Of a DNA stretch of 64,000 nucleotides, positions 36,971 to 54,802 are shown in pieces. A program made the position numbers and the translations under genes. The notes under the pieces are model-generated. The model had not been told where the DNA came from. It was given only the letters and a program-made list of their open reading frames with translations, and ran no database searches. The stretch is from Candidatus Micrarchaeota archaeon (GTDB lineage: Archaea; Micrarchaeota; Micrarchaeia; Micrarchaeales; Micrarchaeaceae), in assembly GCA_028866905.1 (NCBI GenBank), contig JAGWHI010000002.1, forward strand, positions 7,219-71,218, given 5' to 3'. Within the stretch, counting starts at the first letter, position 1, and every line of letters starts with the position of its first letter.

Positions 36971-36974
36971 AGCA

Positions 36975-38835: not shown

Positions 38836-39651
38836 CTACGACTGTATGTCGAAGTTGGTTGCGGCCTCCTCGTACGTCGTGGGGAGCGAGAAGTTGAACT
38901 GGAAGAGCGTGTAGAGCTCCCTGCCGACTATGCGCGCGAGCTGCACGTCCATGCCCGACATCGCCACCTCGAGCTGCTTTATCTGCGCGCTCAGCAGGTC
39001 TAGCGCCGCCTTCTCGCTCACGCCGACAGCGGTTGTCTCGAAGTACATTATCGTGGCTATCGGCTTCTCGCCCTCGCCTATGCGCGCTATCTTCGTCTGG
39101 AGCACGTTTATCTTCCTCTGTATCTCTGTGACCGTCATCTCGTTCACGTTCTGCGCCTGCATCGCCCTGGACAGCTGGAACTCCTGGAAGGAGCGCTTGC
39201 CCTCCAGCTCGTCGCGCACCTTCTGGACGTCGAGGCCTGCGGACAGCACATGATACTTGAACGGGAAGCCGATGTTCATCACGGCGCGTTCCCACGTCTC
39301 GGGGGCCTGCACAGCCTTGAGCTCCTGGTCCTGCTGCTGTTGCTCCGCCTTGAACGTGTACGCGAACACGTTGGCCGTTACGTATCCGGTCGCGTAGAAC
39401 AGCCCGTTGACGTTCTTCACTACAGCGTCCTGGGTCTTGACTATCCTGTAGTCCTTCGCCGGCTGGAAGCTCACCCCCAGCAGGTTGGTGACGAGCGGGA
39501 ATATCACGAAGTCCGCCCAGTTCATCACGAGAAGGACGCCGAGCGCCACCAGTATGAAGACCGCGCCGATGAGGCTGTATGCGCCGCCGCCCATCGATCC
39601 CAGCGACGACAGCGCCACCACTATCACGAGCCCGCAGAACGCCAGATACAC
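38836..39651 (-). CDS. 2-TM protein with cytoplasmic domain of about 200 aa; paralogue of 39669..40502
   Basis: Start trimmed to the GTG after a GAGGGA purine patch, since the longer ORF overlaps the upstream gene. Two N-terminal helices are followed by KTQDAVVKNVNGLFYATGYVTANVF... and a coiled-coil-like C-terminus. Confidence 0.5.
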   Translation of the reverse strand: MYLAFCGLVIVVALSSLGSMGGGAYSLIGAVFILVALGVLLVMNWADFVIFPLVTNLLGVSFQPAKDYRIVKTQDAVVKNVNGLFYATGYVTANVFAYTFKAEQQQQDQELKAVQAPETWERAVMNIGFPFKYHVLSAGLDVQKVRDELEGKRSFQEFQLSRAMQAQNVNEMTVTEIQRKINVLQTKIARIGEGEKPIATIMYFETTAVGVSEKAALDLLSAQIKQLEVAMSGMDVQLARIVGRELYTLFQFNFSLPTTYEEAATNFDIQS

Positions 39652-39668
39652 TATTCCCTCTTCGTCCG

Positions 39669-40502
39669 TTATATCACCTCCTCCTGGACGTTCTTGCTTA
39701 TCTGCTCGCTTATAGTCGAGAACGGAATCAGGTATTCCGGCTCTATGTAGTTGAGCAGCTCCTTGCCCGTTACTATGCTCGGCGTAACGCCGAAGGTCGA
39801 GCCTATGCCCGAAAGCAGCTCCCTGGCGTCCTGCTGCGCTATGCTCACGGCCTCGTACTCCTTGGCGCCCCGCGCAGACACTGTGGCGTAGTGCGTCAGC
39901 TCGAACGACTGGACTCCGCCTATGTGGTCGAGTATGTTGTGCCACATCGCCAGCTTGCCGCGCACCCTCTCTATGTCGCCCGGCGACCCGTTGTTCTGCA
40001 CGAGCTGGACCTCCTCGTTCTCGACCTTGCTTATCGTGTCGCGCAGCTGCTGGATGTAGTAGTCCTTGTTCATCATGTGGAGCTCAGCGGTGTACCTGGC
40101 CGGCGACTTGCTTATGCCCACAAGCCTGCTCACACGCCTGGAGAAGTCGAGCTTCTCATCGTCGCTCATCTCTGTCGCGGACCTGTATACGGGTATGCGT
40201 ATGTAGACCGTAGCTATGTAGTCCTCGCCGTCCTTCCTGATCACAGAGTCTGATGCGGTGGACAGCCAGTATGCGTCCTCGTTGCTAAGCACTATGTTGC
40301 TGCTCCTCTGCTGCATGAACGGCAGCAGCAGGTAGGTGTAGTATCTTGATGAGAACGCCAGGATGTCAAGCGCCATCGAAACTAGCAGCAGAAGCAGCTT
40401 TGCCGGTGCCGGTAATATGGTCAGAGGCGCTGATCCGGCTATTATCAGGACGACGACAGAGGATATGAAAAATCCCAGGAAGACGAATATCTTCTTGTCC
40501 AT
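39669..40502 (-). CDS. 2-TM protein with cytoplasmic domain of about 200 aa (VirB3 plus VirB4-N-domain-like, tentative)
   Basis: Two N-terminal helices, then SDSVIRKDGEDYIATVYIRIPVYRSATEMSDDEKLDFSRRVSRLV....YTAELHMM. This has the same order of elements as the start of the VirB4/TrbE N-domain. A TATA-like GGTATAAATAGG lies about 38 nt upstream. Confidence 0.55.
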   Translation of the reverse strand: MDKKIFVFLGFFISSVVVLIIAGSAPLTILPAPAKLLLLLVSMALDILAFSSRYYTYLLLPFMQQRSSNIVLSNEDAYWLSTASDSVIRKDGEDYIATVYIRIPVYRSATEMSDDEKLDFSRRVSRLVGISKSPARYTAELHMMNKDYYIQQLRDTISKVENEEVQLVQNNGSPGDIERVRGKLAMWHNILDHIGGVQSFELTHYATVSARGAKEYEAVSIAQQDARELLSGIGSTFGVTPSIVTGKELLNYIEPEYLIPFSTISEQISKNVQEEVI

Positions 40503-40580: not shown

Positions 40581-41465
40581 CTACGGGACAGTATATCCGC
40601 TGGTCCACGTGCTGATGAATATCACGTTCTGCGTCAGGCCGCTGTAGATGTTGCCGCTGTAGTCCTGGGGGCCCCCGTTCAACTGCCACCAGCCCACAGT
40701 GGCCTGCGCGTTTATCGGCGCTCCGCCTATGCCCTCGAAGTAGAGCGCGCTGACGTCGTTGGACGAGAGTGCGGTGTTGTAGAGCTGTATGTTGGAGACA
40801 TATCCCTTGAAGTAGCTACCAGATGGGACGTATCCGGCCCCTATCGAAGCCGATCCGGAGAACGTCACGCTCGGCCGGACGTTGAGCGTCTCGGAGTAGG
40901 ACGCCCCGTCGACATATACTGTCGCTGTTGTTCCGCTCCCCGGGTACGTGAAACCTATGAAGTGCCACTTGCCGTCGTTAACGACGTTCGCAGATGACGT
41001 GGTTGTGCCGCATACCTCTGCAGTCGGATGCCCGCTATAGATCCCAAGGGCCCATATCGTTCCGGCGGTGCAGGCGCTGGAACTGCCGGGATTATTGCCG
41101 TAAGAGAACACCCACGGATAGTTCGTGCTTTGCGTGGTCTGCACCCATGCGAATACGCTTATAGCGTTGTCGCCCATGGGGAAGGAGTTCTGTGGTATGC
41201 TGGTTATGTTGCTCGTCTTCACGCCAGTAAAAGACGCTACGAACTGCGGCTCCTCGTTGTTGCAAAGGCCGCTGGTCTGGGCGAACTGGCTGGTGCCCGG
41301 CCCTTCCGGCCTGACTATGCTGCATGCGCCCCCCTGCGTCTTAGGCGCGCTGCCGTTGAACACGCCTATGCTGTACAGCGCAGTAAGGGCGACCGCGATT
41401 ATTATTATGGCCCAGCCATAGGTCATCAGGTATTCCATTGCGGATTGGGCCCTTAACATGCGCAT
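40581..41465 (-). CDS. class III signal peptide (prepilin-like) protein with LamG/concanavalin-A-like domain
   Basis: MRMLRAQSAMEYLMTYGWAIIIIAVALTALY is a textbook archaeal prepilin N-terminus. AISVFAWVQT...DGKWHFIGFTY...VYVDG...GYVSNIQLYNTALS is the LamG jelly-roll pattern. Confidence 0.75.
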   Translation of the reverse strand: MRMLRAQSAMEYLMTYGWAIIIIAVALTALYSIGVFNGSAPKTQGGACSIVRPEGPGTSQFAQTSGLCNNEEPQFVASFTGVKTSNITSIPQNSFPMGDNAISVFAWVQTTQSTNYPWVFSYGNNPGSSSACTAGTIWALGIYSGHPTAEVCGTTTSSANVVNDGKWHFIGFTYPGSGTTATVYVDGASYSETLNVRPSVTFSGSASIGAGYVPSGSYFKGYVSNIQLYNTALSSNDVSALYFEGIGGAPINAQATVGWWQLNGGPQDYSGNIYSGLTQNVIFISTWTSGYTVP

Positions 41466-41499: not shown

Positions 41500-42633
41500 T
41501 CATATGAACGACCTGATCCTGCCGCCCATCTGGCTCGCGCCCCCTATGACGTTGGCCAGCTGGGTTATGAAGGCGTACGAGACGGTCGTTATCAGAGCAG
41601 GCCAGAACAGTATGAGAAGCCAGAAAGCGCTGAGGGAGTGCTGGGCGGAAGCGAGCGTGGTCACAAGCGGCGAGGTTGGGCTCAACGCGTTTACCTCTGC
41701 CCCTGTGCCTGCGCCGTACTTGTTGAGGGAAGCCGAGTACGCGGCCAGGTTGCTCTGCATGCTCGGCAGGGTGAAGTAGTATGCAATCGCGAAAAGCGAT
41801 GGCGTCACTAGGTAGAAGGCTATCGCTATAGCTACCATCATTCCGCCGAGCGCCCTGGTCGGGAAGAACGCCCGGAGCACTATGCCGGGCACTAGGAAGA
41901 CGGGTATCGCCGAGATGGCGAAGAACACTATGAGATAGTACTGCGCGTGGAGCGCCAGGATGCCGTCAGTCATGAGCCCGGCCAGTGTCACCGCAGGGTC
42001 TATGAAAAGCACTTGGAGTAGCAGCTTGAGCCTTCCGACGCTTGTGGCCCCTCCCTCCTCGCCCACTATTGGGAGCACCTGCCCATTGACATACAGGCTC
42101 TTCACCTCAAGGTTGTTGTAGAATTGGTCTGTTATGTAGACGTTGGTGAGCGAAGTGTACATCGTCTCAGTCCCGTTGATTGTGGATTGCAGCTGGTGGA
42201 GTATGTAGGGATATGGGCTGACGGGCCCGACAAAGACAGCAGGCAGTATGCCGAACAGCACTGCCGACAGGTAGAGGAAGAGCAGAACTATTATTCCGCT
42301 CGCCGTTGCCTCGTATATCTCGCCTATGCCGAAGTTTCGTATCCTGTCGCTCTTGAGTGCCGTGCCGATCATGAAGATTGCCGCTGCGACCAGGAAAGCG
42401 AGCATCACAGCGGTGAACGCGAGCGGAAGGTCACCGCACCATGTCTGCGCTATTTGCGAATTTATCGGCAGGTACCATGGCTCGTTCTGCGATATCTGCT
42501 GCTGGACCGACTGCGGGAGCTGGCTGCAGGACTGCTGCTGCGCTTGGCTCTGCTGAGCTGCGCCAGCCGATGCGGAAAGCGTCGCGATTATCGCAAGCGA
42601 TAGCAGCAAAAATGTTTTCTTGGACAACATCAT
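41500..42633 (-). CDS. polytopic membrane protein, paralogue family member 1 (VirB6/TrbL/CedA-like role proposed)
   Basis: Start trimmed to MMLSKKTF (ATGA overlap with the upstream stop). Signal/anchor helix, Gln-rich segment, motif GIVLRAFFPTRALGGMMVAIAIAFYLVTP. Confidence 0.65.
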   Translation of the reverse strand: MMLSKKTFLLLSLAIIATLSASAGAAQQSQAQQQSCSQLPQSVQQQISQNEPWYLPINSQIAQTWCGDLPLAFTAVMLAFLVAAAIFMIGTALKSDRIRNFGIGEIYEATASGIIVLLFLYLSAVLFGILPAVFVGPVSPYPYILHQLQSTINGTETMYTSLTNVYITDQFYNNLEVKSLYVNGQVLPIVGEEGGATSVGRLKLLLQVLFIDPAVTLAGLMTDGILALHAQYYLIVFFAISAIPVFLVPGIVLRAFFPTRALGGMMVAIAIAFYLVTPSLFAIAYYFTLPSMQSNLAAYSASLNKYGAGTGAEVNALSPTSPLVTTLASAQHSLSAFWLLILFWPALITTVSYAFITQLANVIGGASQMGGRIRSFI

Positions 42634-43817
42634 ATCACGCTTGTCAGGAGGGACATAAAGTCTATGCGTTCGCCGAAGGCCCTGGAGAAGTCCACTATGA
42701 ACGCATCCAGTATTATGAAGTTTATGAAGGGTATGAAGGTGAAGCCTGCGGCTATGAACAGCAGGGATGTCAGCAGGTTGGGATCCACGAAGTTTATGAG
42801 CGAGCACTGCGCGGCCGACTGCGTGATGGGCGCGACCACTTCAGACTGCAAAAGGCAGCCGGCCGTATTCAACAGTATGGTGAATCCAGCTTGCGTGCCG
42901 AACTGGACTATCGATAGCGCGTTCTGGGGGATCAGCGTAATTGTGGTTATGTTGGAATCTATGAAGCCATACGTTATGCTGACCAGTAGCGGGTAGATTA
43001 TCCCAAGGCCCAGGCCGAGCGCGATAAGAGTTCCGCCGAAAGACCTGGTCAGGCCGAAGGTCCTCGCCAGCAGGCCGAGGATTATGAAAAGCGCGAATAG
43101 GAACACGCTTGACGAGAGTATGAGCAATTGCACCTGGCTCAGCATTGTCAGGGTTATTATCGCCGAGTAGGATATGGAGGTCACCTGCTCCATGGACTGC
43201 GGATACAGGCTCGCGAGCCCGAAGCTGACGTTGAGTATAGAGTCGCCAGGTGGCGGGCCGAAGCCTGCAAGTGGCGACTTGGAGCCAACCTGGCTCGCGG
43301 TTGATGGTGCGGACTTGCCCACCGGCAGGTAGACGTTGAACCATATGCCAGGGGTAAGTCCAGTAACTATGGATGTGATGTACACCAGCGCAAACGACGT
43401 GTATGCGCCGCTGTTGAAGTTGCTTAGGTCGCACACCGCCAGGGTGTTGAGGCTACCTGCGGACGCGCATTGTGGCGGGATGAGCCCGACCTTCGAGAAG
43501 CCAGGCTGCGGGCTTAGCATCGTTATGTATGCTACGGAGCCGAACGCTACGAGCAGCAGCACGGACAGCAGCCCCTCGTATATCTGCGTACGCGACCAGT
43601 TCCTGGCGGCGCCGCTACCCGTTATGCCCGAGAGCATGTACACTATGGACGCTATAGCTATGACCAGGAGGACTATCGCGGTGGCCAGCGGTATCCAAGA
43701 GGTTGTGTCTATCGACGGCGTCTGCACAGGGCCCGCAGCGTAAATGACCGGCATAAGCAGCGACACCATTACGAACGCGGCCGGCAATGCCTTTGCGAGT
43801 TTAGACTGCAGCATCAT
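42630..43817 (-). CDS. polytopic membrane protein, paralogue family member 2
   Basis: Motif GLLARTFGLTRSFGGTLIALGLGLGIIYP. ATGA overlaps at both ends. Confidence 0.65.
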   Translation of the reverse strand: MMLQSKLAKALPAAFVMVSLLMPVIYAAGPVQTPSIDTTSWIPLATAIVLLVIAIASIVYMLSGITGSGAARNWSRTQIYEGLLSVLLLVAFGSVAYITMLSPQPGFSKVGLIPPQCASAGSLNTLAVCDLSNFNSGAYTSFALVYITSIVTGLTPGIWFNVYLPVGKSAPSTASQVGSKSPLAGFGPPPGDSILNVSFGLASLYPQSMEQVTSISYSAIITLTMLSQVQLLILSSSVFLFALFIILGLLARTFGLTRSFGGTLIALGLGLGIIYPLLVSITYGFIDSNITTITLIPQNALSIVQFGTQAGFTILLNTAGCLLQSEVVAPITQSAAQCSLINFVDPNLLTSLLFIAAGFTFIPFINFIILDAFIVDFSRAFGERIDFMSLLTSVI

Positions 43818-45013
43818 ATCACGTTCCTCAGCACATGTTTGGACTGCATGCTTGGCGCGCCGAGCAGCTGGCTCAGGTATTGGACGAAGTCAAGCGCGGT
43901 CAACAGCGAGAGCACCACCGCTATTATGGCGTATACCGACGGGACTATCACGTTCAGTACGAATGAGCACACGGTGTACTGGTAACCCTTGAAAAGATCT
44001 ACCATGGTCGGCAGATAGCTGGACGGGCTTGCGAATGTTATGCTGCTGCCTATGCTCTGCAGGGTGACCTGCTGCGGTGGAACGGGCGCAGCCGAGCCGA
44101 AGCATATGGTTGGCACGGCTGTTGAGAGCCCTGTTATGTCGGGCAGTGTCAGCATATAATACAGAAGCAACGGGAAGACTATATAGAAGCTGGCGAAGAG
44201 CGCTATGAACGCGCCGCCTGCGGCCCTGGTGAACGGCGTAGACCTTAAGACCACCCCGGCGAACAGGAAGAACGGGAAGACGTAGTAGAATACTGCAGGC
44301 AGCATGGATAGCGCGAGCATTGCCGCGAGAATCCCCCAGCTCACGTTGATCATTGTCGACAGCACCTGCGCTATAGCCGAAAGGCCGCTGAGCGGGGCGA
44401 CTATGAACCCGACACCGCCAGGCTTAAACGTTATGTATATTGAGCTTAGTATGTTGAGCGAGTTCTGCTCTGTAATCAGGGATATTATGCTTGAGAAAGG
44501 GTTGAGGGCGACCCCGGACAGTATATTGCAGTCTGATTGGAATACCGTAACGTTGAGCGAGGAGCCGCCGAGCGCGAACAGGCCAGATGGACCAGATATG
44601 ATATTTATTGCTGAAAATGTGCCAAGGAATACGTACACTACCGCTGCCGTTATCACTATCTCCCCCATCTCGACCTTTGCGAATCGCGTCAGCTTGTCTA
44701 TATGGAATGCGCTCCCTATGGCCCAGGCCAGCGCCATTATGCCGAGCATTACCCCGATCAGCGCAGTGGCAAGCGCTATAAGGCTGTTGAGCGCGAAAAG
44801 GTTCGACACGTCGGCGAAGCCCCTGTTGGAGGTGAAGAGCGCGTTGCATAGGGATGCCGAGCCGCCAGTCTGGCTCTGCGATTGCGTTGTGGCAGAGAAG
44901 ACTGTTGGGGAGGTCTGTGAGTACGAGCTTTGCGGCAGGGCGACCACCGCAAGCGCAGCTATCGCGATGACCGCAGCCGCGAAGCCAATGATCCCGTTTG
45001 CCACATCATTCAC
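43814..45013 (-). CDS. polytopic membrane protein, paralogue family member 3
   Basis: Motif GVVLRSTPFTRAAGGAFIALFASFYIVFP. Abuts its neighbours with a 0-4 nt gap or overlap. Confidence 0.65.
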   Translation of the reverse strand: MNDVANGIIGFAAAVIAIAALAVVALPQSSYSQTSPTVFSATTQSQSQTGGSASLCNALFTSNRGFADVSNLFALNSLIALATALIGVMLGIMALAWAIGSAFHIDKLTRFAKVEMGEIVITAAVVYVFLGTFSAINIISGPSGLFALGGSSLNVTVFQSDCNILSGVALNPFSSIISLITEQNSLNILSSIYITFKPGGVGFIVAPLSGLSAIAQVLSTMINVSWGILAAMLALSMLPAVFYYVFPFFLFAGVVLRSTPFTRAAGGAFIALFASFYIVFPLLLYYMLTLPDITGLSTAVPTICFGSAAPVPPQQVTLQSIGSSITFASPSSYLPTMVDLFKGYQYTVCSFVLNVIVPSVYAIIAVVLSLLTALDFVQYLSQLLGAPSMQSKHVLRNVI

Positions 45014-46552
45014 CTATATAAGGCGCGATAGCCCTGCCAGGGAGGTGTCGCCACCCAGCAGCCCGGAGAGGCCCAGTATCGCAGCTATCACTATCAGTAT
45101 ATTTATTATCGGCAGGAAATACGTCGATACGCCTATCATGCCATAGGCGCTCATGAATCCGTAGAACATGCCCAGCATGCCGTCGGCCGGACAGTTGTAA
45201 GGCAGCGGGAAATTTGGCGCACCCTTCTGGAACCCGAGCGCACCCACGTTCAACGATATGAAGGATATCACGTCGGGAGCCGGCACCATGGTCCACAGTA
45301 TGTCCTCCGACTCTGCCTCAACGAGGTTGCCGTCGCTTATTGTCTGCGGAAGCAATTTGTTCCCGAAGGCTGGGCCGCCAGGCCAGCAGGCGTAGTACTT
45401 CCCTATCGCCTTCATGCTCGGCTGCACGAAAAAGTTCGGCACGTATGCCGAGATGGACCTATTGGGGAAGACCGCAGTGTTGTTTGCTGCCGGGATGGCG
45501 AGCGTTGAGTTGGTGCTGGCGTTAAGCAGGCCTCCGAATCCGTACACTGATGCCGTGCTATTAGGCGAACTCGAGAACGCCGCAGCTGAACCATGGCCGA
45601 GCGCGAGATACTCTATCCCGAACACCGTGGGGTAAAATATCACCATGCCTATCGCTACAGCTATCAGGAGCCCTCCTATCTTCCGCGTCAGGAACACCGC
45701 CCTCAGCAGCAGGCCGCCGAAGATGAGGTACGGCCAGATGTATATGGACGACACTATTATGAGGAGCTGCGCCACGCTGGCCTGGAACGACAGGTCCATG
45801 AGGTAGGATATCACCTTCATCGAACTGTATATCATGTCGTAGCCGTAATAGGGCCTGAAGTCGAACTTGAGGTAGAACAAAGACTGCCCTGCATTCACGG
45901 TGGGGAAACAGCTCACCACGTTGGACCCTGGCACGCAGATTTGTATCGCCGGCCTCAGCCTTGACAGGAATCCCACGAACGAGTCCTCGACCATATAGCT
46001 GTTTAGGTTTGCCACTGACTGGTTTGTCAGGTTGGCGACCACGACACCAGTGGCGGCGAGCGGATACTCTATCTCTGCGGTGAGGCTGCTCTGCGGATAC
46101 CCGACTATGCCACACAGGCCAGGGAACGGCTGCTGCGGCGTCTGGGTCGTGCTGGGCGGCGCTGCGGCGTTTAGTACAGAATCCGCTTTGCCGAGCAGCT
46201 GCAGGTAGGTGGTATTGCTTATCTGGCTGCACAGTGACATTATTGACGACTGCGACAGCAGGCTGCCCTTGTTAAGCGACCCTTGCGCCTGGAATATCGA
46301 TGCGTACGACACAAGCGCGCCGATTATAATCATAGTAAGTATCACAGTTCCTATCAGCTGGTAGAACTCGTTCAGCGCGCCCTGCTTCGCCCCCTGGTTC
46401 CGCAGCAGCGTAGCAGCGAAGTACCATACTGCCACTATCATGGCGTCGAGCAGGAGAGCCGCTATAATCAGGGGCATTATGTCGGTCTGCACTGGCGAGA
46501 CCACAGGCAGCGCGGAGGAGGTGGCCGCCAGTAATATCTGCGATGGTGTCAT
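45014..46552 (-). CDS. polytopic membrane protein, paralogue family member 4 (longer external loop)
   Basis: Motif GLLLRAVFLTRKIGGLLIAVAIGMVIFYP. It has an extra C-terminal loop and helices. Confidence 0.65.
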   Translation of the reverse strand: MTPSQILLAATSSALPVVSPVQTDIMPLIIAALLLDAMIVAVWYFAATLLRNQGAKQGALNEFYQLIGTVILTMIIIGALVSYASIFQAQGSLNKGSLLSQSSIMSLCSQISNTTYLQLLGKADSVLNAAAPPSTTQTPQQPFPGLCGIVGYPQSSLTAEIEYPLAATGVVVANLTNQSVANLNSYMVEDSFVGFLSRLRPAIQICVPGSNVVSCFPTVNAGQSLFYLKFDFRPYYGYDMIYSSMKVISYLMDLSFQASVAQLLIIVSSIYIWPYLIFGGLLLRAVFLTRKIGGLLIAVAIGMVIFYPTVFGIEYLALGHGSAAAFSSSPNSTASVYGFGGLLNASTNSTLAIPAANNTAVFPNRSISAYVPNFFVQPSMKAIGKYYACWPGGPAFGNKLLPQTISDGNLVEAESEDILWTMVPAPDVISFISLNVGALGFQKGAPNFPLPYNCPADGMLGMFYGFMSAYGMIGVSTYFLPIINILIVIAAILGLSGLLGGDTSLAGLSRLI

Positions 46553-46561
46553 ACGTATAAC

Positions 46562-47764
46562 CTATATTCCGCTCCACAGCGGGGTTGCTCCTTCTATGCC
46601 GGCATTGAGCGCTTTCGAGAGATTTACTGCGAACGCTATCGTTATTCCGAGGTTCAACGCGAACAGCACGATCGCCTGAAATATGAATGTCGCCATTTTA
46701 GCGGTAAGGTCGTCTAGCCCGACCCACGGAGTAAGGAAGTTGCTGATGAAGTAGTTTCCCGTGAGGATGTTGCCAAGGAATCCAATGGCGTACGGGCTTA
46801 TGCTGAATCCCGGTATCGTAACTGTTGTCGCGCTGGTGGATGACACCGCCTGCTGGAAGAAGGTTGGCGGCAGATTCGATATCGAGAAGTTGAATGTGTG
46901 CAGGTACTGGTACGACGGGTTGGAGCTGCTGAACATCCATGTCATTATGTACGCGTCCATCGAGATGGTCAGCGGATAGACTATGTAGAACGCCACGGCT
47001 ATTGCTATCATTGAGTTGGCCGCGCTCCTCAATCCGCCGCCTGCGCCAGCGAACGCTATGGACCTCAGCGCAATGGCTATCGGAAGTATGATTACGAATG
47101 CGGTATATTGGGCCAGCGGTACTAATATGTATTGCAGCAACATGGCCCCAGTTGTCACTATCAGTATGGGGGAGAAGATGTCCAGATACAGCTTGCTCAG
47201 TATCGCGAAGGTGACGCCTATGTTGGTGCCTATGTACGGGGTAACGTAGACCGCGGTTCCTGCCGGCGCGCCGGACTTCAGCTTGAAAAGCGGCGTCCCT
47301 ACGTTGAACTTATTGAGGTACCCGCCAAGGGCGATGTTGAGCAACGCCTGCGCGCTGGCGTAGTAGAGCTGGCCCGTCAGCGCTGAGCTCATCGCATCCG
47401 TGTAGACCTGCGAGAGCATGCCCATTCCCGTGTTGAACGTGAGGTTGCCTATATAGTAGTCAGCGAACTGGAACGGTGACATCTGCTGGCCAGTGATCCC
47501 CTGGCTCAACGACGACGATACGCCGCACACTGTCGAGGCCGTAAGCGCGAGCACCATGATGATGACGCCGCTTATGACCATCTGGATTATCTCTCCGCGC
47601 ACCATTGAGGTAAACCTGGTCCTGATGTTTGTCGGAAGGTACCTGCTGAACATGTAGACTGCAGCGATGGTGAGCAGCCCGACCAGTATAACTGTGAAGT
47701 TGACCCCGAGCCAGCCGCTTGCGTAGGTTGAGCCACCGTACAGTGCACATGTGTCTACAGCCAT
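46562..47764 (-). CDS. polytopic membrane protein, paralogue family member 5 (divergent motif)
   Basis: Motif variant IAIALRSIAFAGAGGGLRSAANSMIAIAVAFYIVYP. Confidence 0.6.
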   Translation of the reverse strand: MAVDTCALYGGSTYASGWLGVNFTVILVGLLTIAAVYMFSRYLPTNIRTRFTSMVRGEIIQMVISGVIIMVLALTASTVCGVSSSLSQGITGQQMSPFQFADYYIGNLTFNTGMGMLSQVYTDAMSSALTGQLYYASAQALLNIALGGYLNKFNVGTPLFKLKSGAPAGTAVYVTPYIGTNIGVTFAILSKLYLDIFSPILIVTTGAMLLQYILVPLAQYTAFVIILPIAIALRSIAFAGAGGGLRSAANSMIAIAVAFYIVYPLTISMDAYIMTWMFSSSNPSYQYLHTFNFSISNLPPTFFQQAVSSTSATTVTIPGFSISPYAIGFLGNILTGNYFISNFLTPWVGLDDLTAKMATFIFQAIVLFALNLGITIAFAVNLSKALNAGIEGATPLWSGI

Positions 47765-47768
47765 TGTT

Positions 47769-50504
47769 TCACGCGAGCTTGAACTTGCCTAGCGACAGCT
47801 TGTTCCTTATCGTGCCGCCCAGCACATTTGCAATCGATTCTATAATAACGACCATTATCACCAGGTCGAAGATGAAGAGGATGAACTGAAGCAGCATCCC
47901 GAACGAGTATCTGGTCAGTGCGTTGATCGGGGGATACACGCTGGCGGCCTGCGGCAGCAGGTAATAGCCGTTGGTCTGCTCGGAGTACCCGCAGAACGAC
48001 CCGAATATGGTCGATATGCCGTCCTGCCATCCCGGCCCTGACGACGGGGAGCCCGCATAACTGTACACCGCCTGCGCGCCGGATACGAAGGGCCAGAGCA
48101 CGGGTATGTTTCCGCAAGGCAGCGGAGGGTTCGGTGGGTTCTGCAGCATCAGGAACGAAGTTGCGTAGTTTGTCAGCGGGATATTGAAGAGCAGCATCAG
48201 CGTCGGGTATATTATCGATATCCCTATGCCTAGCGCTATCATCGTGCCGCCCACTGGCCTGAGGAACGGGAATGCCCTTAGCACTATGCCGATAGGCAGC
48301 AGTATTCCGAGCCCTATGAACGCCATGAGCGGGAGCAGGCTGAGCTGTATCGAGGCGAGCAGCATCACAGGCACTATGATAAGCGAGAGCATCGATGTCA
48401 GGAATGATATGCCGCCAGTATCGCCGCTGTCAAGCACAGTGTTTTGGTAGATGTATTGCTTGTAGACCCCGAAAGTCACGTCCACGAGATTGGGGTACGG
48501 GGGCGGCAATATCGGATAGTCCGCATACACATCTATCTGCAGCGACTTGATCGCCGAGTAGGCGAGCGATATGCCTAGCGATTCGCTGAATGCCGACTGC
48601 GCGGCCAGGGACTGGGGCAGCAGGTACTGGTTTGCGACAGCCGCATAGAGGTTGCCAAGATTCGTTGCAAGGGAAGCGGACTGGGCGACCGTGCTGTTGG
48701 AATACAGGCCTGACGGCTGCTGCGGAGTTATGCCGACCAGGCTGACAGCGACACTGCCAAGTATCACTATGACGGAAAACACTATCGCTATCACGAAGAG
48801 GCTCTTCGTCGCCTCCCAGAGCTCGGTCTTGTACCAGTTCTTGAGCCCCTCGACCCTCAGCACCTCTCCCACCATGTAGGCTATAGCGACGAACAGTAGC
48901 GACAGCATAAGGCCTATGAATGCGAATGGCAGCGCGCTTGTCACGCATTGGCCGAAGAATTGCGGGAATATCTGGAATGTTCCGCCGACCGCCCTGCCGA
49001 AACTGCTGAAGCTACACGCCTGTGTTATGCCCGCGCCAGTAACGTTGACGGGCATACCCTGTATCACTGTGAGGGTCGCCGATTCCGTATTTACGCCGTC
49101 GCTTGCCGTGATCGTGTGCGTGCCTGGCGTGGTGTTTACGCCCTTCGTGGTGTTCGCGACGGCCAGGGAATAGTTGAAGGAGCTCTGGAATGCTGAGCTT
49201 ACCGGTATCTTGGCGATTAGCTTGCCGTCGTACTTAAGGGTTATGTTTGTCGCAAGCGCGGAAAATCCGCTGCCGGAGATCGTAACGCTGCCGCCCCAAT
49301 ACGATGACGTGGGACTGATGGTTAACGATGGCGTGACATTGAAGTACGCTACCGCAAAAGGCGGAGGCGCTGATGGGGTGGGCCCTTGGGTCGGTGTTGC
49401 TGTAGCGGATTGCGTTGTCGGCGTAGCGTTCGATGTCCCGACTTGGGCCACTATCTCGTGCTTCCCTGAGCCTGACTGGGGAATAGGGAACACAGCCACG
49501 AACGAGCCAGGCAAAGGATCAGAAGTGGAGTTGGTTACCACCTTCTGCGGTATTGTTGCTGCCTCAACGCCATCGTATGTTATGTTAACAATCGCAGACG
49601 CAGGGAACCATACCCCAGATATTACTGCCACAGTTCCTACATGGCCCTTCGACGGCGTTACGGTTATGTACGGCGTCGGTATTGGGCCTACGGGCTGCTT
49701 CTGTGTCGTGTATAGGCCAGACCAGACCGGCTCCCCCTGCTGCGTAAATGTGAGGTTGGATCCGACAACGAACCCGTTCGTCCTGTTGCCTATCTCTCCG
49801 ACACCGAACGGATAGCTCTGCTGCACCGATTGCGCGGTTGTGTAGACGCTTCCGTTGCTTACGGGAACGAAGGCCGTACCGTTGTAATAGCTTACGTTAG
49901 TGAACTCGACGACCTTGAGCAGTTCCCCTGTGGCGTTCGTGCCATTGTACTCCACTGAAGCGACCGGCTGGCCGCCTGAGGATTTGGTAGCGTTGATCGT
50001 TGCGCTGCCTATCTGCGCGCCGTTGAAGTACACGCTCCAGCGGTTTCCGTTCGCCTTTATCGCGTAGCTGTTAATCGTGCCGTCCGGGCCTGCGGATCCG
50101 TCTGGCCCGTAATTCGTATAAACCTGCTGGCCGGACCCAGGCTGGTAGCTCCAGAACCAGGCAGCCTGTCCGTGGGTTAGGTGCACAGTCCCGGTGCATC
50201 CGAGCGCGCTGCAGCCGGTCGGGAACTGGCCGGTCTGGTTTGGGAAAAGGTAACCCGCCTTTATAGAGGCGCCGTTTGATAGCGATTCGCCGATCCATGC
50301 GCTGGTCGTGTTGCCCTGCTGGCCCAGGTTCTGCACCACAGTGACTATGTTGGTGCTCGCGCCGTAGTTCGGTGAGCTCCCGTTCGCGAATATGCCAGTC
50401 TGCACATCCTGGGGGGATGATGAATTCGCGTATGCGCTGTTCGAGAGGAGCGCGAGCAGCACGACTGCCGCTAAAAGTAGCGAGGCTCCCTCCCTGACAG
50501 GCAT
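47769..50504 (-). CDS. 911-aa fusion of a signal peptide plus ectodomain of about 500 aa (lectin-like N-domain and two IPT/Ig-like modules) with a C-terminal membrane domain, paralogue family member 6
   Basis: Signal LLLAAVVLLALLSNSAYA. Ig-like modules TVTPSKGHVGTVAVISGVWFPASAIVNITYDG and LTISPTSSYWGGSVTISGSGFSALATNITLKYDG. Membrane part carries GIVLRAFPFLRPVGGTMIALGIGISIIYP. Confidence 0.7.
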   Translation of the reverse strand: MPVREGASLLLAAVVLLALLSNSAYANSSSPQDVQTGIFANGSSPNYGASTNIVTVVQNLGQQGNTTSAWIGESLSNGASIKAGYLFPNQTGQFPTGCSALGCTGTVHLTHGQAAWFWSYQPGSGQQVYTNYGPDGSAGPDGTINSYAIKANGNRWSVYFNGAQIGSATINATKSSGGQPVASVEYNGTNATGELLKVVEFTNVSYYNGTAFVPVSNGSVYTTAQSVQQSYPFGVGEIGNRTNGFVVGSNLTFTQQGEPVWSGLYTTQKQPVGPIPTPYITVTPSKGHVGTVAVISGVWFPASAIVNITYDGVEAATIPQKVVTNSTSDPLPGSFVAVFPIPQSGSGKHEIVAQVGTSNATPTTQSATATPTQGPTPSAPPPFAVAYFNVTPSLTISPTSSYWGGSVTISGSGFSALATNITLKYDGKLIAKIPVSSAFQSSFNYSLAVANTTKGVNTTPGTHTITASDGVNTESATLTVIQGMPVNVTGAGITQACSFSSFGRAVGGTFQIFPQFFGQCVTSALPFAFIGLMLSLLFVAIAYMVGEVLRVEGLKNWYKTELWEATKSLFVIAIVFSVIVILGSVAVSLVGITPQQPSGLYSNSTVAQSASLATNLGNLYAAVANQYLLPQSLAAQSAFSESLGISLAYSAIKSLQIDVYADYPILPPPYPNLVDVTFGVYKQYIYQNTVLDSGDTGGISFLTSMLSLIIVPVMLLASIQLSLLPLMAFIGLGILLPIGIVLRAFPFLRPVGGTMIALGIGISIIYPTLMLLFNIPLTNYATSFLMLQNPPNPPLPCGNIPVLWPFVSGAQAVYSYAGSPSSGPGWQDGISTIFGSFCGYSEQTNGYYLLPQAASVYPPINALTRYSFGMLLQFILFIFDLVIMVVIIESIANVLGGTIRNKLSLGKFKLA

Positions 50505-50538: not shown

Positions 50539-51273
50539 TTATCGCTTGAGCAGGGGGAATTTCTTCATGTACATCTGGCTCTGCAGCACCACTATGAACG
50601 GCAGTATGAAGAGCCCGTTGAACACCAGGAGCGCATACCTTGAGGCCGCTGTCCCGCCGAACGCAATGAAGAGCAGGTCGAACACGCTCACGAGCAGTAT
50701 GACCACTACAATCCAGAGCAGAGTGTAGTCGAGGCGCTTCGCGAAGAAGTTGGCGCTCGCCTGCATGGCGTGCACCAGGCGCTTCTCGTCTATCACAATG
50801 GAAGACGGCGCGTAGAGGAAGAACGGGAAGGCGATCAGCGCTATTATTGAGGTGACCACCCCAGTCAGCGACGGGACAACCGCATAGGAGGCCATGGCGG
50901 CGAGAACTATTATTATAGTGTAGAGCAGGAGGGCCAGGAAGACCTTGCCCGTGTACTTCTCGAGGCTCCTTATCACGTCGCTCTTTATCTTGGTGCTCGT
51001 CCTCGTGTGCTTGACCACCACGTTTATCATCACCATGGCGAAGCTGAAGAAGAGCAGCGAGAAGAGAGTTGCGGCCACTATGACGGCAGTGTCTGCCAGG
51101 CTCAGGCTTCCCAGGCTAGCCAGCCTGACGAAGGTTCCGCCGACGTCGTTGTACGTCGGGAAGGCCGCGAAGAGCGGTATGAGGAGCGCTATCACGAACG
51201 ACAGCGAGAAGAGCAGCAGGAGCTTTATGTTGCCGAGGTAGGTGTTGACCGCGTGCATGACTACGTTCGCCAT
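50539..51273 (-). CDS. polytopic membrane protein (244 aa), first gene of the minus-strand operon
   Basis: Six hydrophobic helices with no family motif. A TATA-like TTTTATACC lies about 30 nt upstream on the minus strand. Confidence 0.55.
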   Translation of the reverse strand: MANVVMHAVNTYLGNIKLLLLFSLSFVIALLIPLFAAFPTYNDVGGTFVRLASLGSLSLADTAVIVAATLFSLLFFSFAMVMINVVVKHTRTSTKIKSDVIRSLEKYTGKVFLALLLYTIIIVLAAMASYAVVPSLTGVVTSIIALIAFPFFLYAPSSIVIDEKRLVHAMQASANFFAKRLDYTLLWIVVVILLVSVFDLLFIAFGGTAASRYALLVFNGLFILPFIVVLQSQMYMKKFPLLKR

Positions 51274-51361
51274 GGTATCTGACTACTATTGCATCAAAAG
51301 GTATAAAATACGGCGGTCATAATGGTTGCGCCTGCGCGCACATACGACGAAAAATACAGCA

Positions 51362-51375
51362 ATATATAAATATTA
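51362..51375 (+). promoter_or_regulatory. TATA box ATATATAAATATTA about 27 nt upstream of the ATG at 51395
   Basis: The position and composition fit an archaeal promoter driving a leaderless or near-leaderless mRNA for the repeat protein. Confidence 0.4.
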
Positions 51376-51394
51376 TCTATGCGGCTATTTTATC

Positions 51395-54300
51395 ATGGGA
51401 AACGGGATGGCGCCCGTCAGGAGAGCGTTGCTGTTGGCCATTGCAATGGTGGTCTCTCTAGCGCTCAGCGCGACTGTCGTTTACGCCCAGGGCACGCTCG
51501 GGGGGCAGATGACGATAACCCCGCAGAACCCGGTAATAACAATAGGGCAGCAGGACACCATATCGCTCAGCGGCCAGGTCACAAACGGCACGCAGCCCTT
51601 CTCTTTCGAATGGTTTGTCCAGAATCCCGGGGCAAACAGCTATGTTCCGCTCTCTTCTCAGAACGGGGCCGTATCCATAGCGGCCACCCAGGCATCCCAG
51701 CTCGGCACTTACAGCTTCAAGTTCGTGGTAACAGACGCTAACGGCAACCAGCTGACATCCAATATCGCAACCGTGCAAATCGTCAGTTCGGTGGCCTCCT
51801 CGGCCAATGTGACGGTCAGCCCGCCGTCTGGGACGCTTAAGCTCGGCAGCAGCATCACGCTCGCAGCGAGCGGAGCGCCGATAACCGCAGGGTCTTCCAA
51901 CGGATGGAATTTCCAGTGGTACGTGCAGCCGCCCGGATCTTCGACTTACCAGCTGATCGGCGGCGCGACCTCTTCGTCCTTCATAGTTATAGCGTCAAGC
52001 ACCTTTGTCGGAACTGGAGTCAACTACTATTCGCAGACGGGCACGTACAACTTCGAGATAATAGCCTCGAAGGGCTCGACTAGCGTTACCTCAGCGCCTG
52101 CTACGATCACGATCGTTCCGACAATCCAGACGCCGCTGGTTGGCTCTATAGTGGCGAGTCCGCAGCTGTCATCGATAATACAGGGAAACAGCGACACGAT
52201 AAACATACAGGGCACTGTCACAGGGGGGCAGCCGCCTTACACCACGTCATGGTACGTCGAGAACCCCGGCAGCACGACATGGCAATTCCTTTCAAACTTG
52301 AACAACAACCTGCCATTCACGACCTCGACCAGCACTAAGCCAGGAATCTACAACTTCAAGTTCATAGTGAGCGACAGCACAGGAGCCAACGACAGCTCCA
52401 ACATAGCCTCTGTCGATGTGACGCCCTCTAACGGGGGGCCGGGAGTGAACAGGACAGCGCCGTTCCAGGGTTCGGTAAGCGTCACGCCCATCGGCACTTC
52501 GGTGGGCCAGGGTTCATCCGTGGTCCTCAACGGCTACGAGTTCGTAAGCGGCGGGAACAAGCCCTACACCTTCGCGTGGTACTACCAGCCGCCGGGATCT
52601 GGATCGTTCGAGGTTGCGCCAGGACAGAACGGCGGAAGCTCGTACACTTTCACGACTTCGTCTTTCACACCTACAGGAAGCTACATATTCGAATACAGGG
52701 CGTACGACGCGAACCTTGCAGAGGTCGATTCCAACGAGGCGTTCGTGACTGTTACGACCCCGACGACAGGACCAGGCACATCGCCCTCTGTGCAGATAAC
52801 GCCCCAGAGCTCGATAATAACTTCAGGGCAGCCGGTGTACTTCAGCGCCCAGCTCATAAACGACAATTCCGGTGCTACGCACTACCAGTGGTACGAGAAC
52901 GGCCAGTCGCTGGCGGGGGAGACGGACGGTTCCTATACCTTCTGGTCCACGTCCCAGGCCCCGGGAACATACACGTTCTATGCGGCTGTGACCGACGGTT
53001 CGGGAAGGGTGTTCAACTCCACAAACGTGACAGTGGTAGTGCAGCAGAGCGCAGGAGTCAACGGGCAGGGGCTCACCGGCACGATCAACGTTTACACAGG
53101 CAAGATGACGGACACAAACGGAAACATAGAGTACCTGTCGTACGTCACGCTTGGCCAGGGCGGCACGCAGACTATAACCGCCAACGACACCATATCGGGC
53201 GGCACTCCGCCGATTAGCTTCCAGTGGTACATTGAGGGGCCGAACGACTACGCTTTCAGGCCGATATCCGGCGCGAACAACGCGTACAGCTATCAGTTCG
53301 CGACCTCCAGCGCAACGCAGTCTGGGACCTACAAGTTCCAGCTCATAGCTACAGACCAGAACGACAACCAGGTCACGTCCACGGTCGCGTTCGTCAACGT
53401 CATTGGCGGCTCCACGTCAGGCGGTTCCACTACGACCATACCGTCTACATCAGGCTCGTCCAACCTTGCTGGCCAGATAACCATATCGTCCACCTCCTCG
53501 AGCGTGCAGTACGGCGGCAGCGCCACATTCACTGTGAGCGGCCAGCTGAGCGGAGGCGTATCGCCATACACTTACGAGTGGTACATACAGAACCCCAACT
53601 CAGGGACATGGCAGACGTACGCCTCTGGCAACGGCAACCTCACATTCACGCCGACCAGCACGCAGCAGGGGCTGTACAGCTTCGAGTTCGTGGTAACCGA
53701 TGCGACAGGGAAGACGGTGGCATCCAACATAGAGTCCATAAACGTGCTCGCGGGCCCGGGAAGCAGCCAGAGTACGACCACAATGCCGCAGCAGGGCGGA
53801 GGATCGCAGTCGCTGCAGGGCGCGATAACGATAACGCCTGCGAGCGGAACGCTCGTGATTGGCGGGCCTACCGACACCATATCTGTGAGCGGAAGCCTGA
53901 GCGGCGGCAAGGCGCCATATACCTTCCAATGGTACGAACAGCTCCCGGGTAGCAGCAACTGGCAGCCGCTCTCGTCCCTCAACGGAGCGATCACTGTAGG
54001 TGCTACGTCAGGCAGCACCACGCCAGGCGCCTATGGTTTCCAGTTCGTTGTCACTGACAGCTCGGGCCAGACCATAGTTTCCAACCAGGCGACTGTGCAG
54101 ATAGTGAGCGCTGGCAGCACGACTACTATAACTGGTGGCGGCGGCAACACTGGCGGCACCGTAAGCCCAGCGGAACGCTGCAGCGGAGGATCGATAACGG
54201 CCAGCTCGACAGCTTCATCGCTCAGCGTGGGCCAGAGCGCGACGCTCTCGGAATACACCACAATAAACATCAACAACTGCACCACTGAGGGGTGGTATGT

Positions 54301-54802
54301 CCAAAACCCGTACACCAGCTCGTACCAGCAGATCTCCCCTGGCGTAGGGCCGTACACTTTCTATGCTACCGGCGGGACTGGAATCGGAACCTTCAACTTC
54401 GAGTACATAATCTACAACGCCAGCGGCCAGGTCGCGGCGTCTAACCCAGTAGCCATAACGGTCGTGGGTCCGCAGGGGTCCGGCAGTGGCAGTGGCTCTG
54501 GCAGCGGATCAGGTAGCGGTTCAGGACAGGCCAGCATATCGGCTTCGGCATCGGAGGTCGCCGCAGGGAGTTCGGTGACAGTGTCTGCCAGCGGATACTC
54601 CTCAAGCTCCACCTACCAGTGGCAGGTGATGGCGCCTGGCGGAAGCTGGGAGAACATCCCAGGAGCGACATCGCAATCGTACACCTTCCTTGCAGGCTAT
54701 GGCCCGTTCTCCACATACGGGACCTACCAGTTCCAGCTGGTTGTCACGCCAAGCACAGGAGGCAGCTACACCACTTCCTCGGTTTCCGTTTCTGTTCAGT
54801 GA
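51395..54802 (+). CDS. secreted 1135-aa protein with about ten tandem Ig-like repeats and a (GS)8 linker; putative adhesin or surface fibre
   Basis: Signal peptide MGNGMAPVRRALLLAIAMVVSLALSATVVYAQG. About ten units of 95-105 aa share P-[YF]-[TS]-F-[QE]-W-Y-x-Q-x-PG...W/Y-Q...G-x-Y-x-F-x-[FL]-[VI]-[VA]-[TS]-D. No C-terminal TM or sorting signal. Confidence 0.8.
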   Translation: MGNGMAPVRRALLLAIAMVVSLALSATVVYAQGTLGGQMTITPQNPVITIGQQDTISLSGQVTNGTQPFSFEWFVQNPGANSYVPLSSQNGAVSIAATQASQLGTYSFKFVVTDANGNQLTSNIATVQIVSSVASSANVTVSPPSGTLKLGSSITLAASGAPITAGSSNGWNFQWYVQPPGSSTYQLIGGATSSSFIVIASSTFVGTGVNYYSQTGTYNFEIIASKGSTSVTSAPATITIVPTIQTPLVGSIVASPQLSSIIQGNSDTINIQGTVTGGQPPYTTSWYVENPGSTTWQFLSNLNNNLPFTTSTSTKPGIYNFKFIVSDSTGANDSSNIASVDVTPSNGGPGVNRTAPFQGSVSVTPIGTSVGQGSSVVLNGYEFVSGGNKPYTFAWYYQPPGSGSFEVAPGQNGGSSYTFTTSSFTPTGSYIFEYRAYDANLAEVDSNEAFVTVTTPTTGPGTSPSVQITPQSSIITSGQPVYFSAQLINDNSGATHYQWYENGQSLAGETDGSYTFWSTSQAPGTYTFYAAVTDGSGRVFNSTNVTVVVQQSAGVNGQGLTGTINVYTGKMTDTNGNIEYLSYVTLGQGGTQTITANDTISGGTPPISFQWYIEGPNDYAFRPISGANNAYSYQFATSSATQSGTYKFQLIATDQNDNQVTSTVAFVNVIGGSTSGGSTTTIPSTSGSSNLAGQITISSTSSSVQYGGSATFTVSGQLSGGVSPYTYEWYIQNPNSGTWQTYASGNGNLTFTPTSTQQGLYSFEFVVTDATGKTVASNIESINVLAGPGSSQSTTTMPQQGGGSQSLQGAITITPASGTLVIGGPTDTISVSGSLSGGKAPYTFQWYEQLPGSSNWQPLSSLNGAITVGATSGSTTPGAYGFQFVVTDSSGQTIVSNQATVQIVSAGSTTTITGGGGNTGGTVSPAERCSGGSITASSTASSLSVGQSATLSEYTTININNCTTEGWYVQNPYTSSYQQISPGVGPYTFYATGGTGIGTFNFEYIIYNASGQVAASNPVAITVVGPQGSGSGSGSGSGSGSGSGQASISASASEVAAGSSVTVSASGYSSSSTYQWQVMAPGGSWENIPGATSQSYTFLAGYGPFSTYGTYQFQLVVTPSTGGSYTTSSVSVSVQ
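54476..54526 (+). repeat. imperfect GGY-AGY/TCN hexanucleotide tract encoding (Gly-Ser)8-Gly
   Basis: Read directly as GGGTCCGGCAGTGGCAGTGGCTCTGGCAGCGGATCAGGTAGCGGTTCAGGA. It sits between repeat 9 and repeat 10 of the large protein. Confidence 0.9.

Follow-up and report, generated by a model that had tools for sequence, protein, structure and literature searches.

Six tandem paralogous membrane proteins encoded beside a VirB4-like ATPase in Micrarchaeota: candidate VirB6-position subunits of a type IV secretion system-like machine

Micrarchaeota are genome-reduced archaea that need physical contact with a host. A stretch of 64,000 nucleotides (nt) from a Candidatus Micrarchaeota genome assembly (GCA_028866905.1, contig JAGWHI010000002.1, positions 7,219 to 71,218), analysed as a whole and called here the window, contains an array of six complete genes on the minus strand (41500-50504) that code for polytopic membrane proteins, G1-G6. 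The question raised by this locus is what these six proteins are and to which machine they belong. We consider it probable, at about 0.6, that G1-G6 represent an unannotated family with five transmembrane (TM) helices, providing the VirB6-position channel or stalk-base subunits of a chromosomal, relaxase-less machine that resembles a type IV secretion system (T4SS). The genes of the array are the following (lengths in amino acids, aa).

G1, 47769-50504, minus strand: 911 aa, paralogue 1.
G2, 46562-47764, minus strand: 400 aa, paralogue 2, the most divergent of the six.
G3, 45014-46552, minus strand: 512 aa, paralogue 3.
G4, 43814-45013, minus strand: 399 aa, paralogue 4.
G5, 42630-43817, minus strand: 395 aa, paralogue 5.
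G6, 41500-42630, minus strand: 376 aa, paralogue 6, the best conserved.

The gaps between successive genes from G1 to G6 were +4, +9, 0, -4 and -1 nt. The GTG start of G4 abuts the stop codon of G3, and stop and start codons overlap at the G4/G5 junction (4 nt) and at the G5/G6 junction. Since the junctions are tight or overlapping, the six genes were assigned to one operon. The 376-aa form of G6 with an ATG start is identical to the NCBI protein KGH98_00850 from a Candidatus Micrarchaeota metagenome-assembled genome, and the 435-aa open reading frame (ORF) with a GTG start (41500-42807) was rejected as too long. The outer N-terminus of G6 contains Cys, and a signal peptide is present. The longest outer loops were those of G3 (about 165 and 150 aa). 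The family domain of G1 is the C-terminal ~410 aa (47769-49004), and the sequence encoded by 49005-50504 is a genome-specific outward N-terminal extension of ~500 aa, located downstream of the signal peptide. G1 orthologues elsewhere are mostly 405-450 aa long and do not have this extension, for which only faint ConA/LamG-like Pfam hints were obtained (expect value, E, of 0.055-0.094). Faint ConA/trans-sialidase-like hints and, by eye, two repeated immunoglobulin (Ig)-like stretches were also noted within it. Comparable extensions of 400-500 aa occur on some orthologues of the other paralogues, giving proteins of 650-1,300 aa. Throughout the window, high-GC coding regions also give rise to numerous long ORFs in other frames or on the opposite strand that are spurious; they overlap real genes, for example 44304-45146 (plus), 45561-46232 (minus) and 49174-49815 (plus), and should be left out of annotation.

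An earlier interpretation of the locus, made from the letters and translations (the sequence-only reading), had described six tandem paralogues sharing two conserved blocks, and this description was borne out by BLASTP, by hidden Markov models (HMMs) built solely from orthologues and by HHalign comparison of all 15 pairs. Pairwise BLASTP linked all six proteins, with modest scores of 30-50 bits. Single-group HMMs were prepared from orthologues of G6, G3, G5 or G1 only, with the window sequences left out, and were run against the complete set of 325 stop-to-stop ORFs (80 aa or longer) in the window. They matched solely other paralogues, mostly with E of 1e-9 to 1e-18, and no other membrane protein among these ORFs was matched. 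The weakest matches of the four HMMs were to G4 (E 1e-13 to 0.025), and G2 was missed by all four. When HHalign profiles of 60-75 orthologues per paralogue were compared, every pair gave a probability of 96.9-99.5 % (E 1e-10 to 1e-22, 206-285 columns), and G2 scored 96.9-98.7 % with the other five. The membership of G2 and G4 was settled by these profile-profile scores. Control comparisons of G1-G6 with W244, W277 and W369 (described below), which are membrane proteins encoded in the same operon, did not exceed 3 %, so the concern that the motif might prove to be TM low-complexity with no significant pairwise scores was not substantiated. On these alignments it is practically certain that G1-G6 are a real, conserved paralogous family, and their similarity, judged by the same comparisons, is not low-complexity TM similarity.

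All of the motif strings quoted in the sequence-only reading were found in the translations. Both conserved blocks, a Glu after TM1 and R-x5-R-xx-GG...P at the turn between TM3 and TM4, persisted in a joint alignment of 414 sequences from the six orthologue groups, to which the conservation, charge and Cys values given here refer. In G6 numbering, P277 was conserved in 100 % of the sequences, R253 in 98 %, R259 in 96 %, G363 in 86 %, G249 in 85 %, G262/G263 in 85/84 %, A267 in 82 % and E104 in 81 %. The position of E104 is occupied by Gln in the G5 group, and the Gly-Gly pair is replaced by Ala/Asn in the G2 group, which also has a 6-residue insertion in the motif loop. Hydropathy revealed a common core. 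It may begin with a signal peptide or anchor, after which TM1 and TM2 flank a short basic loop. A long loop (60-165 aa) leads to TM3, a very short basic turn with L-R-x5-R-xx-GG connects TM3 to TM4, and another long loop (45-150 aa) separates TM4 from TM5, which is followed by a short basic tail. The net charge of the three short segments was +1.1, +2.1 and +1.0, and that of the two long loops was -3.3 and -1.6. Cys residues were confined to the N-terminal segment and the two long loops. The charge pattern and the Cys distribution, together with hydropathy, therefore indicate an N-out/C-in orientation with five TM helices, and the charged residues conserved family-wide are all on the cytoplasmic face of this predicted topology.

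The AlphaFold2 model of G6, computed from a 94-sequence alignment, was confident, with a predicted local distance difference test score (pLDDT) of 87 and a predicted TM-score (pTM) of 0.78. It is entirely helical and contains six long helices of 34-63 residues (53-91, 95-133, 139-172, 191-253, 256-306 and 321-363), and those of TM3 and TM4 reach far beyond the membrane. The R253...G263 block forms the tight TM3/TM4 turn in the model, with one helix stopping at R253 and the next starting from 256. Hydropathy, the charge and Cys distribution and the model agree with the layout proposed before (an anchor, a TM helix, a basic loop, a variable outer loop and a late R..R..GG block at a helix boundary), and they place the RxxGG block in a short cytoplasmic turn between TM3 and TM4.

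How widely the array occurs was determined by profile and genome searches. An exhaustive profile search recovered 2,645 representative proteins at E<=1e-3, 1,627 of them at E<=1e-10, and none of the relatives found had a Pfam domain. Those carrying a name were nearly all 'hypothetical protein' from Micrarchaeota; a few came from bins labelled Marsarchaeota, Methanothrix or bacterial, which look misassigned. When one genome per GTDB species was scanned using G6 orthologues as the query, a search whose reach is that of Micrarchaeota-type G6, relatives of G6 were detected in 134 species representatives. Essentially all of these are Micrarchaeota, among them the cultivated Ca. Micrarchaeum sp. A_DKE, with a complete genome, and a Ca. 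Mancarchaeum. Synteny was analysed in 80 loci from different species, out of the 134 stretches with G6 relatives. The other members of the 14-gene cluster that emerged, and one further gene located within it in the window, are listed here.

W244, 50539-51273, minus strand: 244-aa polytopic membrane protein, first gene of the conserved cluster.
W277, 39669-40502, minus strand: 277 aa, N-terminal two-helix membrane hairpin and alpha/beta domain.
W369, 38836-39651, minus strand: paralogue of W277, the real protein being ~271 aa according to NCBI KGH98_00835.
ATPase, 37276-38793, minus strand: 505 aa, P-loop ATPase of the VirB4/CedB/CedD/HerA clade.
d105, 36975-37292, minus strand: small conserved 105-aa protein, 17-nt overlap with the ATPase stop.
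d126, 36590-36970, minus strand: 126 aa, Cys4 zinc-ribbon-like N-terminus and two-helix membrane hairpin, position conserved.
d242, 35790-36518, minus strand: 242-aa coiled-coil protein with a faint C-terminal winged-helix hint, position conserved.
d800, 33219-35621, minus strand: 800-aa bitopic protein, last gene of the conserved cluster.
Pilin-like LamG protein, 40581-41465, minus strand: archaeal class-III-type signal (QSAMEYLMTYGWAI) and LamG/ConA-like domain.

The order W244-G1-G2-G3-G4-G5-G6-W277-W369-ATPase was constant in 80/80 loci. All six paralogues were present in 61 of the 80, the remainder being cut by contig or flank ends, and no locus lacked an internal member or had an altered order. 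The locus ORFs matched their own window counterpart with 157-316 bits, and no second window protein reached E 1e-8 for them. Median orthologue identity was 34 % for G1, 37 % for G2, 37 % for G3, 32 % for G4, 36 % for G5 and 48 % for G6 (n = 64 for G2 and n = 80 for G6), and 74 % for the ATPase across species. Since each paralogue has its own 1:1 orthologue in a fixed order, the duplications must be older than the diversification of these Micrarchaeota, and every copy must have stayed individually indispensable. The cluster is conserved throughout the sampled Micrarchaeota, in every locus recovered via G6. It is flanked by ThrRS, LeuRS, SOD and TopoVI genes, its chromosomal neighbourhood is the same in many species, and its GC content equals that of the surroundings. 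The housekeeping flanks and unchanged GC place it in the core chromosome. A mobile conjugative element was rejected on account of the ThrRS/LeuRS/TopoVI flanks, the uniform GC and the lack of a relaxase or coupling protein in the ORFs scanned, which covered the cluster and its surroundings (about 14.6-60.7 kb).

Since the array is invariably followed by W277, W369 and the ATPase, the affinities of these three proteins bear on the role of G1-G6. Among NCBIfam models the ATPase matched the VirB4-like conjugal ATPase CD1110 (conju_CD1110, E 7.5e-20), CedD (1.5e-19), CedB (7.7e-18) and TraC (1.1e-17), all of these matches being far below the equivalog cut-offs. Pfam assigned DUF87, AAA_10 and P-loop_TraG, with a sub-threshold hint of TrwB_AAD_bind. 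HerA matches in the PDB spanned only the C-terminal half of the protein, whereas VirB4 4AG5 spanned the whole ATPase domain. The ATPase has no VirB4 N-terminal domain of its own. W277 and W369 are paralogues over their full length (HHalign 97.7 %, E 2e-12); the mechanical ORF of W369 (38836-39945) is longer than the NCBI protein. Neither gave a sequence-level match in Pfam, in a search of the W277/W369 profile against PDB sequences or in HHalign against TrwK/VirB4. In the AlphaFold model of W277 (pLDDT 79.7) an alpha/beta domain comes after the N-terminal membrane hairpin, and the best 14 PDB matches of the model were all TrwK/VirB4 chains of plasmid R388 (E 3.5e-3 to 6e-2, probability 0.91-1.00, 171-211 columns). 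No ATPase-only structure (4AG5, HerA) was among the fold matches and W277 has no P-loop, so the matched part is most plausibly the VirB4 N-terminal domain, which the modelled W277 probably resembles. From these models the operon looks like a VirB4 split over three genes, two for membrane-anchored N-domain-like proteins and one for the ATPase. A VirB4-clade ATPase accompanied by a VirB4 N-terminal-domain fold is the combination that characterizes VirB4-based systems of the Ced/Ted type, and it is very likely that G1-G6 are part of such a machine.

The sequence-only reading had proposed, from context, a VirB6/TrbL/CedA role for the six proteins. This proposal gained support at the level of the system, from the VirB4/CedB/CedD-like ATPase and the VirB4 matches of W277, and weakly at the level of the fold. 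When the G6 model was compared with 350,542 PDB chains, the first rank was taken by 7o3v_J, TrwI/VirB6 of R388 (E 0.04, probability 0.98, TM-scores 0.27/0.35, root-mean-square deviation (rmsd) 11.7; G6 was the one paralogue modelled). Further R388 VirB6 chains were at rank 3 (7o3v_G) and rank 42 (8rtd_H), and the identity of the matched TrwI/VirB6 chains was checked. The other top matches were designed helical repeats and alpha-pore-forming toxins, with rmsd of 26-39. Nothing significant was found among the viral structures of BFVD, where a phage 'TrbL' was at rank 6 (E 0.32). In our view the strongest argument for VirB6 is that two independent models, those of G6 and W277, encoded in one operon, both have R388 T4SS subunits as their best match. 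VirB6 of Agrobacterium has a published N-out/C-in topology with five TM. A topology of this type, with an outer N-terminus, a large outer loop, a cytoplasmic C-terminus and about five TM, was found in G1-G6, and linkage to the VirB4 ATPase in the same operon was found in all loci reaching far enough. R388 VirB6 is described as having seven long helices, five of them hydrophobic (PMC9259494), a make-up which the predicted structure of G6 resembles.

Several results weigh against the assignment. The fold match is weak, no match reaches E<=1e-3, and the fold evidence comes from a single modelled paralogue; long-helix membrane proteins are prone to spurious fold matches. At the sequence level the proposed relationship was not upheld. 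PF04610 was absent from the six proteins (E<=1) and from 94 members of the family (E<=10), NCBIfam provided no family for G1-G6 (whether it includes a CedA model was not verified), and the family profile gave 0 matches to PDB sequences at E<=10. HHalign probabilities of each paralogue profile against an 11-sequence MPF_T VirB6 alignment were 0.1-0.5 %, this alignment of plasmid records (TrwI, TraD-like and others) being a narrow profile compared without secondary-structure scoring, and the family profile scored 0.1 % against TrwI alone. Pfam and NCBIfam scans of the six proteins and of 94 relatives placed them in no family, even at E<=10. Neither a VirB2-like pilin nor a VirB8 was recognized in the cluster, and the lack of a relaxase and coupling protein in the ORFs scanned also counts on this side. 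So does the indirect identification of the VirB4 part matched by W277, whose link to VirB4 was seen only by fold search. In addition, VirB6 in the bacterial stalk is a homo-pentamer, not a hexamer (PMC9259494). Taking both sides together, G1-G6 appear to stand in the position of VirB6, which they resemble in topology as well as in architecture, while membership of the TrbL/VirB6 family is undemonstrated; on balance we favour a VirB6-like origin or role.

If G1-G6 are VirB6-position subunits, the following mechanism can be proposed. The six genes would be co-translated from one tightly coupled operon and the proteins inserted N-out/C-in. They would form a single hetero-oligomeric ring or stalk base, in the simplest case with one copy each. 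The basic cytoplasmic turns, carrying the Glu after TM1 and the Arg-x5-Arg-xx-Gly-Gly between TM3 and TM4, may serve as a docking face for the hairpins of W277 and W369. These two proteins, each a putative VirB3-like hairpin with a VirB4-N-domain-like fold, would anchor the VirB4-like ATPase hexamer. An extracellular stalk through the surface layer (S-layer) towards the host could be built from the protruding helices and from the outer loops, which are variable, acidic and Cys-bearing, and sporadic lectin/Ig-like N-terminal add-ons, as on G1, would lengthen this stalk. ATP hydrolysis would then drive the passage of macromolecules, as in DNA import by Ced/Ted or in the T4SS of Patescibacteria; the cargo might be DNA, protein or another molecule, and we infer a direction only by comparison with such systems. 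By analogy with these systems and with the VirB4-bearing giants of Nanohaloarchaeota, a role in exchange with the host seems most likely for the cluster (PMC9905601, PMC12102498, PMC10266531).

The idea, also put forward in the sequence-only reading, that the array forms a hetero-oligomeric platform and not a set of redundant transporters fits the separate 1:1 orthologues, the unvarying order in 80 loci and the tight junctions. The hetero-oligomer itself is deduced from this pattern, and we think that G1-G6 probably assemble in such a way. A hexamer containing one of each protein is a more doubtful proposition. We regard as unlikely the far-reaching version in which an obligate 1:1:1:1:1:1 pseudo-hexameric VirB6-like channel or stalk, a 14-gene cluster acting as an uptake conduit from the host and a phylum-wide essential symbiosis organelle are all combined. 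The symmetry of such a pseudo-hexamer would match that of the six-fold VirB4-like ATPase, whereas bacterial T4SSs have a C5/C6 mismatch, and the conduit would take up DNA, lipids or proteins from wall-less Thermoplasmatales hosts.

Of the competing explanations, the one that survives best retains the VirB4-ATPase machine but denies the homology with VirB6: G1-G6 would be a lineage-specific invention, or two fused VirB2-like hairpins, forming an extracellular filament or sheath and not the membrane base. The lack of sequence similarity to VirB6 at any level tested and the weak fold match are what this explanation would lead one to expect. Two TM hairpins with short basic loops and one additional TM recall the hairpin-basic-loop design of conjugative pilins, Beltran et al. 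report homology between the CedA N-terminus and the pilin CedA1 (PMC9905601), and a separate VirB2-like pilin was not recognized in the cluster. However, proteins with five TM helices and a cytoplasmic C-tail would be hard to extract into a filament, their size of 360-510 aa is far larger than that of a pilin, and the best structural match was VirB6, not VirB2. We therefore judge a filament improbable.

Still less probable is a solute, ion or lipid transporter or a membrane-remodelling complex that is merely co-located with the ATPase genes and functionally independent of them. The proteins are polytopic with conserved charged residues near the membrane boundary, and a few orthologue records from JGI are named 'ABC-type ... 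transport'. An ABC or other transporter was nevertheless rejected, since no Pfam or NCBIfam transporter family was matched, the order with W277, W369 and the ATPase is invariant in 80 species with short or overlapping junctions, and the helices project from the membrane; moreover, the conserved residues are in cytoplasmic turns and not within helices, and the outer loops are large and variable. Hardly tenable, finally, is a PilC/FlaJ-type platform of an archaeal type IV pilus serving the class-III-signal LamG protein and the prepilin-peptidase-like gene 27945-28832, for although the pilin-like gene sits between G6 and W277 and a weak Peptidase_A24 match lies ~5 kb beyond the cluster end, we rejected it because no T2SSF (PilC/FlaJ) or T2SSE (PilB/FlaI) domain was present in the scanned ORFs (about 14.6-60.7 kb), the ATPase belongs to the VirB4/HerA clade, other loci lack the pilin-like gene at that position and the peptidase-like gene is outside the conserved cluster.

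The preferred reading of G1-G6 as VirB6-position subunits can be compared with four kinds of known systems. VirB6/TrbL proteins (TrwI of R388, PDB 7O3V; PF04610) share with G1-G6 the long helices, five of them hydrophobic in VirB6, and the VirB4-type neighbours, and include the top, weak fold match of the G6 model. They differ in being encoded by one gene instead of six distinct paralogues, in the absence of detectable sequence similarity and in the low TM-scores, and G1-G6 reside in an archaeal single-membrane envelope with an S-layer. The Ced/Ted systems of Crenarchaeota (VirB6-like CedA/CedE, VirB4-like CedB/CedD, and TedA/TedB) are likewise archaeal, chromosomal, relaxase-less derivatives of T4SSs. 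Ced has two VirB6-like paralogues, CedA and the 5-TM CedE (PMC11868833, PMC9905601). In both CedB and CedD the N-domain has TM helices and is similar to a part of the VirB4 N-domain (PMC11868833). The VirB4 N-domain function is shared between the two proteins (PMC11868833, PMC9905601). More than one VirB6-like paralogue and a VirB4 N-domain role spread over two membrane-anchored proteins are thus common to both, the comparison with CedA/CedE/TedA being by description only. In contrast to the two dispersed Ced genes, Micrarchaeota have six paralogues in one fixed array. Their VirB4-N-like parts are separate proteins without an ATPase domain, next to a single ATPase; no CedA1/TedC-like pilin was recognized in the cluster, and the organisms belong to a different phylum (DPANN) and have a different lifestyle.

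Paralogues of VirB6 in Rickettsiales number four to five, not six. The rvh T4SS of these host-dependent bacteria with reduced genomes also resembles the array in its tandem genes and in the presence of extensions, which on G1 and on some orthologues of the other paralogues measure 400-500 aa. The duplicated VirB6 genes of Rickettsiales are in tandem by virB3-virB4, some of them with large extensions (PMC2653234, PMC7648143). The rvh paralogues, however, are recognizable VirB6/TrbL proteins and work in a double-membrane system with VirB7-11. The chromosomal T4SS of Patescibacteria and the VirB4-domain SPEARE-type giants of Nanohaloarchaeota are relaxase-less, T4SS-derived and found in ultrasmall episymbionts, and a role in host interaction has been proposed or shown for this machinery (PMC12102498, PMC10266531). 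Patescibacteria differ in having recognizable VirB6/PrgH, PrgI and VirB2, and in Nanohaloarchaeota the ATPase and a giant adhesin are fused; an array of six paralogues is found in neither.

Archaeal systems derived from T4SSs are already known, as is multi-copy VirB6 (in Rickettsiales, and as CedA/CedE). New are the protein family, for which no Pfam or NCBIfam model exists, the fixed six-member array, the split of VirB4 over three genes and the presence of the cluster in every Micrarchaeota locus recovered. Our literature search found no paper linking Micrarchaeota to VirB4/VirB6-type machinery, and the A_DKE co-culture paper does not mention the cluster. If the preferred reading is correct, T4SS-derived machines extend to DPANN archaea, in parallel to Patescibacteria, and a family of more than 2,600 representative sequences awaits a Pfam entry. 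A VirB6-type component would then be split into six fixed, non-interchangeable subunits, which bears on VirB6 ring assembly and its coupling to VirB4. The presence of the cluster in a cultivated strain makes pull-downs, cryo-electron tomography and expression studies feasible.

The remaining members of the cluster were less informative. A W244 orthologue is located directly upstream of G1 in 57 related loci (median identity 49 %); W244 has no Pfam family and is unrelated to G1-G6 by HHalign. The genes d105, d126, d242 and d800 follow the ATPase in a conserved order (33219-37292), and none received a family assignment. d105, which had no family match, is kept downstream of the ATPase in most full-length loci. 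d242 matched a ZapB-like coiled coil (8.9e-5) and gave MarR_2 and FeoC hints (E 0.2). In d800 an N-terminal TM precedes an outer domain of ~560 aa, and a second TM leads into a ~200-aa cytoplasmic tail; an exact look-up of the protein found no record. The cluster of a 1.2-Mb Micrarchaeota chromosome ends after the d800 homologue, which is followed by TopoVI-B. Two insertions were seen in this chromosome (L094), a 214-aa gene between W369 and the ATPase (12079-12723) and a VapBC (PIN/VapB) toxin-antitoxin pair that separates the homologues of d126 and d242 (15163-15746). The class-III-signal LamG gene (Laminin_G_3, E 5.5e-16), which in the window separates G6 from W277, is missing at this position in the other loci and sits elsewhere near the cluster in a few of them; it is an insertion into the operon, specific to this genome, and not a conserved member.

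Other genes of the window lie outside the cluster. No RNA family of Rfam was detected in the window. The polytopic product of 27945-28832 (minus strand), whose match to Peptidase_A24 (prepilin peptidase) has an E of 0.0024 and is below the Pfam cut-off, may be, judging from its sequence, a processing enzyme for class-III-signal proteins. Next to it, 28861-30342 and 30346-31815 (minus strand) code for two soluble paralogues in tandem (~490 aa; 27 % identity, E 3e-38), each seemingly internally duplicated and belonging to no Pfam family. On the other side, divergent from W244, a gene at 51326-54802 (plus strand) encodes a secreted protein of 1,158 aa with about ten Ig/PKD-like repeats and a (GS)n run near the C-terminus, and another Micrarchaeota genome (L001) has a gene for a 1,409-aa protein in the equivalent location. 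At 14635-16176 on the plus strand the window encodes a membrane protein of the exosortase/archaeosortase type (Exosortase_EpsH, E 2.7e-19).

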